DNA of 64,000 nucleotides from Eledone cirrhosa (lineage: Eukaryota): positions 93,372,001 through 93,436,000 of the forward strand of contig OZ024743.1 of NCBI GenBank assembly GCA_964016885.1. The letters are read 5' to 3'. Every line of letters starts with the position of its first letter. Within the stretch, counting starts at the first letter, position 1. The notes under the pieces were generated by a model. That model worked only from the letters and a program-made list of their open reading frames with translations, was not told the origin of the DNA and did no database searches. The position numbers were made by a program, and so were the translations under genes. Of this stretch, positions 11,396-25,048 are shown piece after piece.

Positions 11396-11629
11396 TACAT
11401 ATATATATATATATATATATATATATATATATATACATATATATATATATATTTATATATATATATATATATATATATATATATATATATATATATATAT
11501 ATATATATATATATATATATATATATATATACACAGGAGGATGCAGAACAATAATATAAAAGACGTAAAATAAGAAAAAAAATTTTTAAAGTTTTTTTAA
11601 AAAATGCTAACTTACTTACTTAAATTTTC

Positions 11630-11711
11630 ACTCCAACTAATTAGTTTCTGCAATGGGATAAAGACAGTTACGTAATCTAACTGTCGAGAATTCATTGCGT
11701 CATCAGGGAGT
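11630..11711 (-). ncRNA. Type I hammerhead ribozyme motif (family H1)
   Basis: Minus strand actcc-CTGATGA-cgcaatg...cattgca-GAAA-ctaattag-TT-ggagt. Confidence 0.8.
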
Positions 11712-12103
11712 TTATTCTCAGCTAAGTCTCCAGGCAATGCGCGGACACTGGCGGCTCATATAAAAATAATAATAATTCGGTAGATGGAACAGCTAGCGGG
11801 GATTGAATTCCATGCACTGAAATCCTCACTGCCTCTAGTCAAATGGCCGATTCTAAAGAATCAATCACGTGACACAGAGGCTAGTCAGTAGGAATAGGCG
11901 TCTGTCATCTTACCATCCCATTCCTACTGACTAGCCTCTGTGTCACGTGATTGATTCTTTAGAATCGGCCATTTGACTAGAGGCAGTGAGGATTTCAGTG
12001 CATGGAATTCAGTCCCCGCTAGCTGTTCCATCTACCGAATTATTATTATTTTTATATGAGCCGCCAGTGTCCGCGCATTGCCTGGAGACTTAGCTGAGAA
12101 TAG

Positions 12104-12185
12104 ACTCCCTGATGACGCAATGAATTCTCGACAGTTAGATTACGTAACTGTCTTTATCCCATTGCAGAAACTAAATAGTTGGAGT
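12104..12185 (+). ncRNA. Type I hammerhead ribozyme motif (family H1)
   Basis: actcc-CTGATGA-cgcaatg...cattgca-GAAA-ctaaatag-TT-ggagt. Confidence 0.8.
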
Positions 12186-12475
12186 GAAAATTTAAGTAAG
12201 TTAAAATTTTTTTTTAAAACATTTAAAAAAATTTTCTTGTTTTACGTCTTTTATATATATATATATATATATATATATATATATATATATATATATATAT
12301 ATATATATACATATATATATATATATATATATATACATATATATATATATATATATATATATATATATATATATATATATATATATATATATATATATAT
12401 ATATATATATACATATATATATATATATATATATATATATATATATACATATATATATACATATATATATATATA

Positions 12476-15400
12476 TAATAATAATATAAAATAATAATGA
12501 AATTATTGTGTACAGTGGTCAGGTGCACTACAACTCATCAAAGGTGCGTGTATAGTACATAGAATAATGTACAAATGTCAGGAAAATGAACAGTCTATGA
12601 GTCATGATATAATAATAATAATAATAATAATAATAATAATAATAATAATAATAATGAAATATTGTGTACAGTGCCCAGGTGCACCACAACTCATCAAATA
12701 GTGCATGTACAGTACATAGGGCAATGCACAAACATCAGGAAAATGAACAGTGCACGAGTTATGATACACACATGTGTGCTTGTGTATGGAAGGGGTACAT
12801 CAGGTGTAGTTTTGGCATATTTCGGGAAGCATGAGTGTCTTAAAGGATGCAGTGTCCCGGCAGCTAACAACTGACGCAGGTAGTTTGTTCCATACTTCAG
12901 CAACTCTGAGCGTGAAAAAATGTCTACGAAAGTCATGGGAGCTGTGCTGTTTTCTGATTTTGTAGGCATGTCCACGTGTGTTAGACACATGGAGATCAAA
13001 AAGGTGCTCAGGGTTGCAATTGGCGAGATGGTTAATAACTTTGTGGGTATTCACCAAGTCCATTGCCAGACGTCGGAGCTTCAATGAATCCATGCCCAGG
13101 GAAGCAAGGCGTTCAGAGTATGGTAGGTGTCTGATGGAGGGTATGCGCTTGGTTGCACGTCTCTGAACAGTTTCCAGGAGGTCAATATTCTGAGCAAGAT
13201 AGGGGTTCCAGACTGATGATGCGAATTCCAAGTGTGGTCGGACCATAGCTGTATACAGTTTTAAATAGATGGCTGGAGAGCGGCTAACAAAGGTCTTGCT
13301 GAGTGATGCCAAGACACCCTCGGCCTTCTTGACAATCTTAGAGACAAGCTTTGTCCAACGCAAATGGCTGCTGACAGTAATGTCCAGGTCACGTTCACAA
13401 GAGGACTTCTTGATATCAGTGTTGTGGCGGGAGTATGTGGACGCTGGATTTTTCCCTCCCAAAATGCATGGTGGTTGGTACACTTGTCCACAGCCAGCTT
13501 CAGTTGCCAGTCTGTGATCCATTGCTGCATTGTGTCCAGGTCTGATTGTAGGAAAGAGTTGTAGATTTCAGGATCAGTCCTTTTCATTTCAAGGTACAGC
13601 TTGATGTCATCTGCATATTTCAGTACCGTGGCATTCTGTAAGTTGGCATCTATGTCATTAATATATGCCACAAACAAAAGGGGACCAAGAACAGATTCCT
13701 GTGGTACACCAGATGACATCTCATATGGTGAAGAATGCTGTCCTAGAACCGTGACTACTTTTTTCGGCTGAGAATGAAGGATTTCAACCAGTTAAAAAGA
13801 TCATCCCTCACACCCATTGCAGAGAGTTTTGCCATAAGTCTTTTGTGTGGCACAGAATTAAAAGCCTTAGCAAAGTCAAGGTAAACAACATCCACCCATG
13901 AGCCGCTGTCAGTGATCCGGGTGATGTCTTCAAGGAACTCGATAAGCTTATCACAGCAGCTGGAGTTAGGTATAAATCCAAACTGTGAGGGCCGGATGAG
14001 GTTGTGAGAGCTCCAGAAGTTCCAAAGTGTTTCTGTGACACAGGATTCCATCAGTTTGGCCATACAGCTAGTAAGACTGACTGGACGATAGTTGACAGGT
14101 GACATGCGGTTGCCCTTTTTGAACAGGGAAATGACACTGGCAGTTTTCCACTGCTCCGGAGTAGCACCATTGTTGAGACAGTATTGAAATAAGAAAGAAA
14201 GCTGGCGCAAAAGGAAATACCCGCCACGTTTGAGAAGCAGGTATGTAACACCATCAAGACCAAGGGAGGCATAGTTGCGCTTATTCTTAAGGTGACGTCG
14301 CAACATTGCAGGGGTAAATTCCATAGTTGTTATGGAATTTGATGTTAGAGATGGTGGAGATGGTACATTCTGGTTTTCAACAGTAAAAATACTTGCATAG
14401 CACTCAGCAATGAGTTTTGCGCATTCTTTGGGATTGTCAGTGATCTGGCTTGTGTGGGGATTGCGAAGAGGACCAACTGGAGAGTGAGGTCTCTGCTTTG
14501 AATGAACATATTTCCAGAACACCTTACTGTCAGGATTGGTTGCTATGCACTGTTCAAATTCAAGCACTGCCTTCTTTGTCACTTGCTTGAGATGGTTAGA
14601 AGATTTATTCCACTTTTTTCTGTTGGCATCTGATTTATGCAGTTTATATTCCCGTTCAGCGTTCCGACGTTCTTTCCTGGCAAATCGGATTGCTGAAGTT
14701 TCCCAAATTGCACTTTTGGGGTGGGTTTTTTCTGCTTATGTGGCACTGATGCTGCACACGCTATCCATATTGAGTCCAGGATGCTCTGGAGTGTAGTGTT
14801 CACATCTCCAGAGTTATACAACTCATGCCAGTTTGGGTGTTGTAGCTCAGTGCAGTACAAGTTCCAATCTGCCTTCTTCCAATCAAAGCAAGCAGATTGG
14901 AGATGGTTCTGGTTTTTGTTGCTGCCCACAAGAGCCAGATTGGCAATGATCATAGCATGATCAGAGTCGCCTAGAGGTTCCTCAGTAGTACAACTGATAA
15001 CCACTTCAGGAGTAGTGGTGAAGATCAGGTCCAAAGTGTTGTCACCTCTTGTTAGAGAGGTGACTACTTGTGACCAGTTTGAGTCCAGCACTAGTTCAAG
15101 GAAATCGTTTGCACTTTGTAGCCAACAAAAGGTTTCCCAATCGATCTCAGGATGATTGAAGTCACCTGCAATAAACACATAAGTGGCTGTTTACTTGGCA
15201 GCAACTCTGAGGATATCGCAAAGCTGTGTGTCCTGATGGTAGTTTGGGGGGCGATAAACAACACCAAGCAGAAGTGTTGACATGGTCATACGTATGTCAC
15301 AGAAAAAAACTTCTTCCTGTGATTCGTTCAAATCAACGCAAGGAATTACCGAAAAGTTTGAACGAACGTAGACCATCACACCACCACCACGGCGATTAAT

Positions 15401-23218: not shown

Positions 23219-24110
23219 ATATATATATATATATATATATATATATATATATATATATATATATATATATATATATATATATATATATATAATGAAGGTT
23301 TAGCAAATAAGAAAAAGTTCCAAAATAAATTTCAAAAATTTCACTGTACTCACTATGGTTACCTTTACCGAATCGGTTTCGAGTCTCAAAAATAAATGGA
23401 CAGTCCTTGCGGCCTTCCATTTTAAAGATAAACTCACTCGGAGAATATAAAATTCCCGAGTTCAAATTACGAACTGGCGCTATTCAAAATTGTTCCCGAG
23501 ATGAGAATGAATGATTTGGAAGCAATTCTGTCCAGTGCCGAGTGTAAAGATAGAAGCAGAGGCAGGGAGGTCAGTCTACTACCACTATAAATAACAGCAG
23601 TCAAAACGACCAAATTTTATCTCGACCAAGAGGAGGATAATAATGATAAAGTATATATCCCTACACGCAAAATGTATATATATATATATATATATATATA
23701 TATATGTATGTATATATATATATATATATATATATATATATATATATATATATATATATACATATATATATATATATATATGTATGTATATATATATATA
23801 TATATATATATATATATATATATATATATATACATATATATATATATATATATATATATATATATATATATATATATATATATATATATATATATATATA
23901 TAAAAGACGTAAAATAAGAAAATATTTTTTTAAAAATTTTTAAAAAATTTTTTACTTACTTACTTCTTTAGAATCGGACATTTGACTGGAAGCAGTGAGA
24001 ATTTCAGTACATAGAATCCAGTCCTCGCCTAGCTGTTCTTTCTACCGAATTATTATTTTTATATGAGCCGCTAGTGTCCGCGCATTGCCTGGAGGCTCAG
24101 CTGAGAATAG

Positions 24111-24192
24111 ACTCCCTGATGACGCAATGAATTCTCGACAGTTGGATTATGTAACTGTCTTTATCCCATTGCAGAAACTAATTAGTTGGAGT
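24111..24192 (+). ncRNA. Type I hammerhead ribozyme motif (family H1)
   Basis: actcc-CTGATGA...GAAA-ctaattag-TT-ggagt. Confidence 0.8.
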
Positions 24193-24663
24193 GAAAATTT
24201 AAGTAAGTAAGTAAAAAATTTTTTAAAAATTTTTTTAAAAATATTTTCTTATTTTACGTCTTTTATATTATTGTTCTGCACCCTCCTGCATTGAACCACC
24301 TAGGTACTATGACATAACCTGTGTATTTGCTGGCATGGACGTGCATCTGTGCGCCTATGTTAGTTGATATATTAAATTATCTATATTTATCTCCAAATCA
24401 CTGATTTGTCGAGCAAACCTGCCAAAACCACTTCAAAATTTTTTTTGGGGTGTTAGTAGGCGTCAGTCATGTTACCATCCCATTCCTTCTAACTAGCCTC
24501 TATGTCACGTGATTTATTCTTTAGAATCGGACATTTGACTGGAAGCAGTGAGAATTTCAGTACATAGAATCCAGTCCTCGCCTAGCTGTTCTTTCTACCG
24601 AATTATTATTTTTATATGAGCCGCTAGTGTCCGCGCATTGCCTGGAGGCTCAGCTGAGAATAG

Positions 24664-24745
24664 ACTCCCTGATGACGCAATGAATTCTCGACAGTTGGAT
24701 TATGTAACTGTCTTTATCCCATTGCAGAAACTAATTAGTTGGAGT
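24664..24745 (+). ncRNA. Type I hammerhead ribozyme motif (family H1)
   Basis: Same as 24111-24192. Confidence 0.8.
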
Positions 24746-25048
24746 GAAAATTTAAGTAAGTAAGTAAAAAATTTTTTAAAAATTTTTTTTTAAATATTTT
24801 CTTATTTTACGTCTTTTATATTATTGTTCTGCACCCTCCTGCATTGAACCACCTAGGTACTATGACATAACCTGTGTATTTGCTGGCATGGACGTGCATC
24901 TGTGCGCCTATGTTAGTTGATATATTAAATTATCTATATATATATATATATATATATATATATATATATATATGTATATATATATATATATATATATGTG
25001 TATATATATATATATATATATATATATATATATATATATATATATATA

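Follow-up and report, generated by a model that had tools for sequence, protein, structure and literature searches.

What is the repeat of about 540 bp, each copy with a hammerhead ribozyme motif, that recurs at three loci of one stretch of the Eledone cirrhosa genome, and by what route was it copied? The stretch, called here the window, is 64,000 nucleotides long (assembly GCA_964016885.1, contig OZ024743.1, positions 93,372,001 to 93,436,000), and the repeat family is called H1. From the letters of the window alone it had been predicted to be a non-autonomous retroelement, mobilised by Penelope-like elements (PLEs) and under selection for RNA structure. The analysis favours, with a probability of roughly 85%, the reading that H1 is a non-coding hammerhead tandem repeat copied by PLEs into (TA)n, and is an animal retrozyme of the kind without long terminal repeats (non-LTR) that consists of a pseudo-LTR (pLTR)-like module standing alone. 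H1 would likely be a protein-free passenger of PLEs.

The H1 repeat unit

A descriptor scan of both window strands gave 11 matches, namely six H1 copies, two hammerheads of other families (core 11157 on the plus strand and 20347 on the minus strand) and three weak ones. The six type I motifs are those of the original prediction, and its four cut sites (15823, 16360, 24187 and 24740) were matched exactly. The motif reads ACTCC-CTGATGA-C-stem II-A-GAAA-palindrome-T^GGAGT; five of the copies have ACTAATTAGT as stem III, and the sixth, with a stem I that begins at 12104, has ACTAAATAGT. The stem II and inner-hairpin variants are as first described; the unpaired C after A9 and the unpaired A before G12 are additions to that description. 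Unit positions are counted from the base after the predicted cut (position 1 is window 24188). At loci 2 and 3 the motifs are spaced 537 and 553 bp apart, as first described. As to layout, locus 1 has its two arms, but they are partial and head-to-head and contain no complete unit, and locus 3 lies where it was placed but is also inverted, with a 68-bp left arm, and ends near 24943 (Table 1).

The two subfamilies present in the window share 453 identities against 82 mismatches. In the genome of 3.0 Gb, 9,522 sites match exactly a 19-mer that covers stem III and the cut, and no site matches its reversed control, so the H1 matches are not due to chance. Copies of the youngest subfamily are 97-99% identical and spread over many chromosomes, and the longest arrays have 12 units or more. 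Tandem units each carry a type I hammerhead; full units measure 487-571 bp (113 units), with a G+C content of 34-37%. That the units are non-coding was borne out, the longest stop-free frame being 47 amino acids at locus 3 and 94 at locus 2. H1 has no open reading frame (ORF) with reverse transcriptase (RT) and GIY-YIG endonuclease, by which an autonomous PLE is recognised, and among the 30 ORFs scanned in the window no PLE protein was found near H1; the window encodes APE-type long interspersed nuclear element (LINE) and mariner fragments.

Insertion ends and the Penelope tail

Ends were mapped in a positional sample of 59 loci (19 + 40), drawn from the matches that were listed first for one chromosome. 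The 5' ends are variable and the 3' ends are fixed in (TA)n: arms finish at about unit position 81 (S end) or 203 (L end), each at an ATAT leading into the microsatellite, a target that would mask any duplication of the target site. Among 35 tail-out inverted insertions, a count from which the complex locus L055 was left out, 30 had one S and one L end, none had S/S or L/L, and five had one unclassed end; 28 of the S/L pairs were classed by motif and two by alignment end and inspection. The 24 non-inverted insertions comprised 15 with an L end, seven with an S end and two unclassed by motif.

PLE insertions are described as carrying a tail at one end only (Craig 2021, PMC8557442; Arkhipova 2013, PMC3846280); the tail is the stretch between two sites inside the RNA at which RT starts, and both strands of the target are nicked (Frangieh 2024, PMC11167929). 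H1 shares with them the (TA)n target, the inverted 5'-truncated arm, the one-sided tail, the hammerhead in the repeat and the two internal start sites, and differs in having no ORF and a tail of 122 nt against 30-40. A conserved hairpin of 21 bp lies in the H1 tail, and three of its pairs show double changes (19 representatives). Judged from the sequences, the S and L ends are the Penelope 'tail' set by two internal RT start sites. The proposal of a non-autonomous element mobilised by Penelope enzymes is thus supported by this two-end signature, together with the covariation of the ribozyme and the lack of an attached PLE ORF, both treated below.

Junctions at the predicted cut

One arm starts at position 1 in 27 loci, of which 25 are inverted, and in eight of these 25 the other arm also starts between positions 552 and 2, against 0 of 15 at two control boundaries (Fisher p 0.016). 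A genome-wide search for two arms meeting head-to-head, with 0-3 spacer bases, found 16 loci at the cut and 0, 0 and 1 at controls near positions 475, 526 and 62. Counted singly, junctions give an unclear picture: the cut has 29, -4 has 11, +3 has 32 and position 448 has 24, which are for the most part substitutions. It is the mapping of both arms that makes the junctions informative. The cut site predicted from the motif is backed by this excess, and the 16 junctions are likely the footprint of hammerhead cleavage in vivo. The same pattern occurs four times at the predicted cut of the hammerhead of an autonomous PLE (L114 type), and in the hammerhead family H2 twice against 0 in the control, one of the two being ambiguous.

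The arrangement of the arms bears on the template. Four loci (L174, L194, L196 and L198) consist of [1-203] back-to-back with [1-81], and three more (L175, L177 and L183) of [1-203] back-to-back with [1-553][1-81]. In the latter one of the two complementary DNAs (cDNAs) read past a ribozyme that was uncut and ended at the following cut, which suggests as template a linear, partly cut multimer and not a monomer circle.

The principal alternative is rolling circle copying, in which monomers of about 540 nt released by the ribozyme circularise and the circle is the main RT template that yields the tandem arrays. Circular RNA has been demonstrated for the retrozymes of coral, mussel and axolotl (PMC7229834), and several features of H1 agree with such a template. 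Most cDNAs cross the cut site (29 junction matches, compared with 9,522 intact sites), arrays of 12 or more units occur, private variants are common to all six units of L235 in both arms and to all four of L242, and the unit folds well as a circle: the circular minimum free energy has z scores of -3.0 to -10.1 on the sense strand, with 57-62% of bases paired, in seven of seven whole units (12 shuffles each). A circle, however, has no 5' end, and yet both arms end at the cut in 16 loci, and the three loci described above cross one uncut site to stop at the next. Mixed units in the long arrays L237, L238 and L239, with variant periods of 2, 4 and 3, would require later rearrangement if they came from a single monomer circle; they point to multimeric templates or to later block duplication. 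Variation within arrays does not separate circle from multimer, amounting to 0.46% within an arm, 0.56% between arms and 0.87% between loci (58 units). Rolling circle copying is rather unlikely to be the main route, and it can coexist with copying from linear, partly cut multimers.

Ribozyme structure

Covariation was examined in 59 complete ribozyme copies, five from the window and 54 of 86 anchored matches, after truncated junction copies and a few near-duplicates were dropped. The search pattern fixed stem III and the 3' strand of stem I, so that the palindrome is part of the selection, and the copies are related, so that paired changes are not independent events. With this reservation, 97.5% of the cells of stem II are paired. 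Pair 2 of the stem is kept in all 59 copies across four pair types (UA 22, CG 21, AU 14, GC 2), pair 5 is UA in 29 and GC in 26, and the inner hairpin has double changes in five of seven pairs. The covariation score is 0.222, against 0.101 for shuffled and 0.03-0.09 for slid controls (at most 0.088). The covarying stems first proposed from six copies, and with them selection for RNA structure, are supported.

The base inserted between A9 and G10.1 is C in 58 copies and A in one, the G10.1-C11.1 pair is present in 55 of 59, and the extra A before G12 is invariant; several other hammerheads of this genome likewise have an additional base flanking stem II on both sides. PLE-type hammerheads (Cervera & de la Pena 2014, PMC4209133) have the extra base after A9, the G10.1-C11.1 pair and a palindromic stem III, and H1 resembles them in these traits, in its 5-bp stem I and in the suitability of its stem III for dimers. 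A strand-swapped dimer is predicted to fold at -26.3 per ribozyme against -22.8, and modelling predicts the dimer formed through the palindromic stem III as the best working form.

GAGAAU, 13 nt before the core, is complementary to AUUCUC of the stem II internal loop, and a pseudoknot between stems I and II is likely in H1. Such pseudoknots are reported in about 40% of hammerheads (Perreault 2011, PMC3088659). Three other long-stem families have different sequences in the same register, GGAAAA/UUUUCC, AUGGAAA/UUUCCAU and GAGUUU/AAACUC (shuffle p 0.055, 0.016 and 0.019, two of the families being related), and in three of seven long-stem families (H2, H6 and H7) the pairing is not in register. 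Just before the pseudoknot strand lies the palindrome CTCAGCTGAG (24096-24105), a self-complementary 10-mer with G-U variants, which forms an intermolecular duplex in the unconstrained dimer fold. Over whole units, the sense (ribozyme) strand folds better than the antisense in seven of seven.

Unlike the known PLE-type and pseudoknotted hammerheads, H1 combines the invariant A before G12 with U17, a 3-bp stem III and a stem II extension of 45 nt, and it is silent in Rfam. A search of 24000-24900 returned no hammerhead match at E<=10 (two rows, with the gathering cut-off of Hammerhead_1, RF00163, unreached), and among the 150 of 357 matches listed for the whole window there was no hammerhead, only microsatellite-driven miRNA matches. 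The 18 genome matches of RF00163 are motifs 44-45 nt long that lie elsewhere; that Rfam misses the H1 motif fits the 45-nt extension.

Autonomous Penelope-like elements in the genome

Elements with RT and GIY-YIG are abundant in the genome (10,597 candidates, 150 scored and 50 loci examined), and they are built as H1 is, with a short end and a tail of 40-55 nt in (TA)n. L113:1353-6670 is a seemingly intact example with RT, CxxC and GIY-YIG, an inverted pLTR and a 45-nt tail. Its ORF is about 1,000 amino acids long, with the CxxC motif before the C-terminal endonuclease, and by the description of Craig it appears to be Neptune- or Nematis-like; the descriptor scan found no canonical hammerhead in it. 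In another autonomous family (the L114 pLTR, and L276) there is a minimal hammerhead with U17 and a palindromic AGUACU. E-box-like CACGTG words occur in H1 (24506-24511) and in several PLE pLTRs (L118 and L153), and these pLTRs also have CCAAT and E2F-like words. CACGTG is a possible promoter element of H1, going by the motif, and H1 and the PLE pLTRs possibly share promoter logic.

It had been foreseen that the units might be simply the pLTRs of an autonomous Penelope family. No such case was seen in the sample: none of the 50 PLE loci, a small part of the 10,597 candidates, has a unit adjoining its ORF. In none of them did H1 serve as the element's pLTR or share sequence with it, and BLAST and a profile of 21 H1 representatives detected H1 homology at only two of the 50 loci, both separate insertions with TA tracts between H1 and the PLE. 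Could H1 copies nevertheless be solo pLTR fragments of an unsampled family? The parts follow one another as in the L114-type pLTR (E-box-like motif, hammerhead, short end, tail), the candidates scored and loci examined are few beside the total, and at L153 the 3' region of a PLE adjoins H1 with no TA tract between them. However, the unit is a closed loop, its tail leading into the next unit and not into an ORF, and the L153 joint lies 8 nt short of the PLE's own end, which is unrelated to H1. When 16 PLE proteins were compared with 202 H1-bearing loci (overlapping), nine matched, the nearest 356 bp away, and in seven of the nine a TA tract of at least 18 nt lay between. An origin as solo pLTR fragments is very unlikely. 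A satellite that grows by unequal exchange and carries a dead ribozyme relic is hardly credible: higher-order periods in long arrays do suggest some duplication after insertion, but the fixed 3' ends in (TA)n with variable 5' ends largely refute it, and the spread over many chromosomes at 97-99% identity, the compensatory changes and the cut-site footprint stand against it as well.

Two sets of candidates were set aside. Joints of H1 or H2 to PLE ends free of TA (L060, L153 and window 10892) were considered as proof of a template switch and rejected, because nested insertion with target deletion looks alike. At window 10613-10892 (minus strand) the 3' end of an L113-type element, 97.5% identical to L113, is joined to H2 without a TA tract, and at L060 the same type of end is joined to H1; either template switch or nested insertion may account for them. 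A short-stem-II relative sharing the H1 stem III was looked for as a possible parent PLE, and the 30 matches read as internally deleted H1 copies.

A proposed route of copying

Copying of H1 would start from multimeric RNA of the ribozyme strand, transcribed from arrays, as the E-box-like motif and the sense-biased folding suggest. The hammerhead would cut this RNA slowly after GUU, best as a stem III dimer and with the help of the pseudoknot; the structure follows from covariation and the activity from the junction footprint. A PLE protein would nick both (TA)n strands and start cDNA at the RNA sites 81 and 203 past the cut, where the two ends are observed and the enzyme is what we infer. Two cDNAs joined head-to-head would give the inverted insertion, with the one short and one tailed end seen in the mapped loci. 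Most cDNAs would read past uncut ribozymes and give tandem arrays, and a minority would run off a 5' end produced by cleavage and leave the junctions found. Monomer circles may form, and they are not needed for the DNA pattern.

The wider proposal is put forward tentatively, with somewhat more doubt than confidence: that germline cleavage is fossilised in the junctions, that PLEs copy from linear, partly self-cut multimers with two fixed priming sites and not from circles, that the junctions offer an assay of activity from the genome alone, and that H1 belongs to a group of retrozyme families which share a hammerhead not described before, with a long stem II, a pseudoknot and one additional base to either side of stem II. 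If true, the count of head-to-head junctions would be a genome-only assay of ribozyme activity in vivo.

Several points weigh against the reading of H1 as an active ribozyme repeat moved by PLEs. Only 16 loci show head-to-head junctions, a small number beside the 9,522 matches to the ribozyme site, and the RNA 5' end at the cut position may in principle be a transcription start instead. Two features of the motif, its extra A before G12 and its GUU site, depart from the canonical form. In the predicted monomer fold CUGAU mispairs with AUUAG, at 2.5 kcal/mol below the active fold, and the pseudoknot scarcely covaries inside H1, with one of six pairs changed on both sides. Eight of nine predicted retrozyme dimers were inactive in vitro (Li 2026). 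The H1 tail is three times the published 30-40 bp, and an autonomous partner PLE was not found, the H1 profile matching only the two separate insertions among the 50 PLE loci. The rarity of the footprint implies that most templates were continuous across the site, which agrees with the report of uncut RNA as the main PLE substrate (Frangieh 2024, PMC11167929); that study found no reads that end at the ribozyme cut, in contrast to the 16 genomic junctions of H1.

Comparison with animal retrozymes

Metazoan non-LTR retrozymes (Cervera & de la Pena 2020, PMC7229834; Li, Clavereau & Pollet 2026, bioRxiv 10.64898/2026.07.22.740005) resemble H1 in their non-coding tandem units with one type I hammerhead each, G+C content under 50% and thousands of copies beside PLEs, of which they are proposed to be non-autonomous derivatives. 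At 487-571 bp the H1 units are longer than the 2020 definition allows (150-450 bp) and fall inside the 51-972 bp of the 2026 preprint, size not being treated here as a defining trait. H1 differs in its long stem II with internal loop, its inner hairpin and its likely pseudoknot, and in being known from DNA alone, whereas circular RNA is documented for those of coral, mussel and axolotl. On testable features H1 belongs with the animal non-LTR retrozymes, a class already described.

The class is known, and its mode of movement is still an open question in the literature. The preprint of 2026 argues for the retrozyme-PLE relation from co-occurrence and homology and describes the mechanism as still to be established, and in the only in vitro study of a PLE nothing indicated a use of cut RNA. 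H1 offers links in the DNA itself, the two-start-site signature of PLEs on an ORF-free unit and the junctions on the predicted cut; its ends tie the unit to PLE enzymes, and insertion ends are not mapped in the relevant parts of either retrozyme paper. Positions 81, 203 and the cut, with intact-looking PLE ORFs in the same genome, provide the basis for a direct in vitro test. The literature searched gave no description of H1, of PLE-type double ends mapped on a retrozyme or of ribozyme-cut junctions, although subscription papers, Repbase/Dfam and bioRxiv supplements may list H1.

Features of the window

Table 1. Coordinates of H1 features in the window (H17, the base before the predicted cut; S and L, ends at unit positions 81 and 203)
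Feature	Position	Strand	Details
H1 locus 1	11534..12256	both	inverted insertion in (TA)n
Locus 1 left arm		-	unit ~292 via cut site to ~101
Locus 1 right arm		+	unit ~270 via cut site to S end, 81
Hammerhead copy 1	11630..11711	-	H17 11635
Hammerhead copy 2	12104..12185	+	H17 12180; stem III variant ACTAAATAGT
H1 locus 2, subfamily b	15648..16425	+	537-bp unit; 5'-truncated tandem between two TA tracts, S end
Hammerhead copy 3	15747..15828	+	H17 15823
Hammerhead copy 4	16284..16365	+	H17 16360
H1 locus 3, short inverted arm	23898..23965	-	unit 14-81, S end
H1 locus 3, tandem arm, young subfamily a	23964..24943	+	553-bp unit; unit 330-553, 1-553, 1-203, L end
Hammerhead copy 5	24111..24192	+	H17 24187
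Predicted pseudoknot	24103..24136	+	GAGAAT 24103-24108 with ATTCTC 24131-24136
CACGTG, E-box-like, possible promoter element	24506..24511	+	inside one of the best conserved unit blocks
Hammerhead copy 6	24664..24745	+	H17 24740
Tail between S (81) and L (203) ends	24822..24943	+	122 nt; conserved 21-bp covarying hairpin

Two other hammerhead families share the window with H1. H2 (10893-11398, plus strand) has its core at 11157, a GUA site, a tandem spacing of about 541 bp and inverted arms, with 3,975 first-look candidates genome-wide. H3 (20190-20830, minus strand; core 20347) has the palindromic ACUGAUCAGU and a repeat of about 487 bp; it has a predicted pseudoknot in the register of H1 and resembles the L112 family at 72%. 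A short piece at 20851-20890, stacked in the TA tract of H3, corresponds to the 3' half of another small hammerhead family (L119, L127 and L128).

A frameshifted LINE with APE and RT occupies 12800-15658 (minus strand) between H1 loci 1 and 2. The RTs of other LINEs are found at 21568-23331, 32197-39916, 42084-44147 and 55659-62145, and a mariner helix-turn-helix domain at 25917-26252. A minisatellite of about 100 bp with TA-centred palindromes fills 45967-54456 and 3330-4023; it shows a higher-order duplication of 4,035 bp and has an inverted copy near 3.3-4.5 kb.

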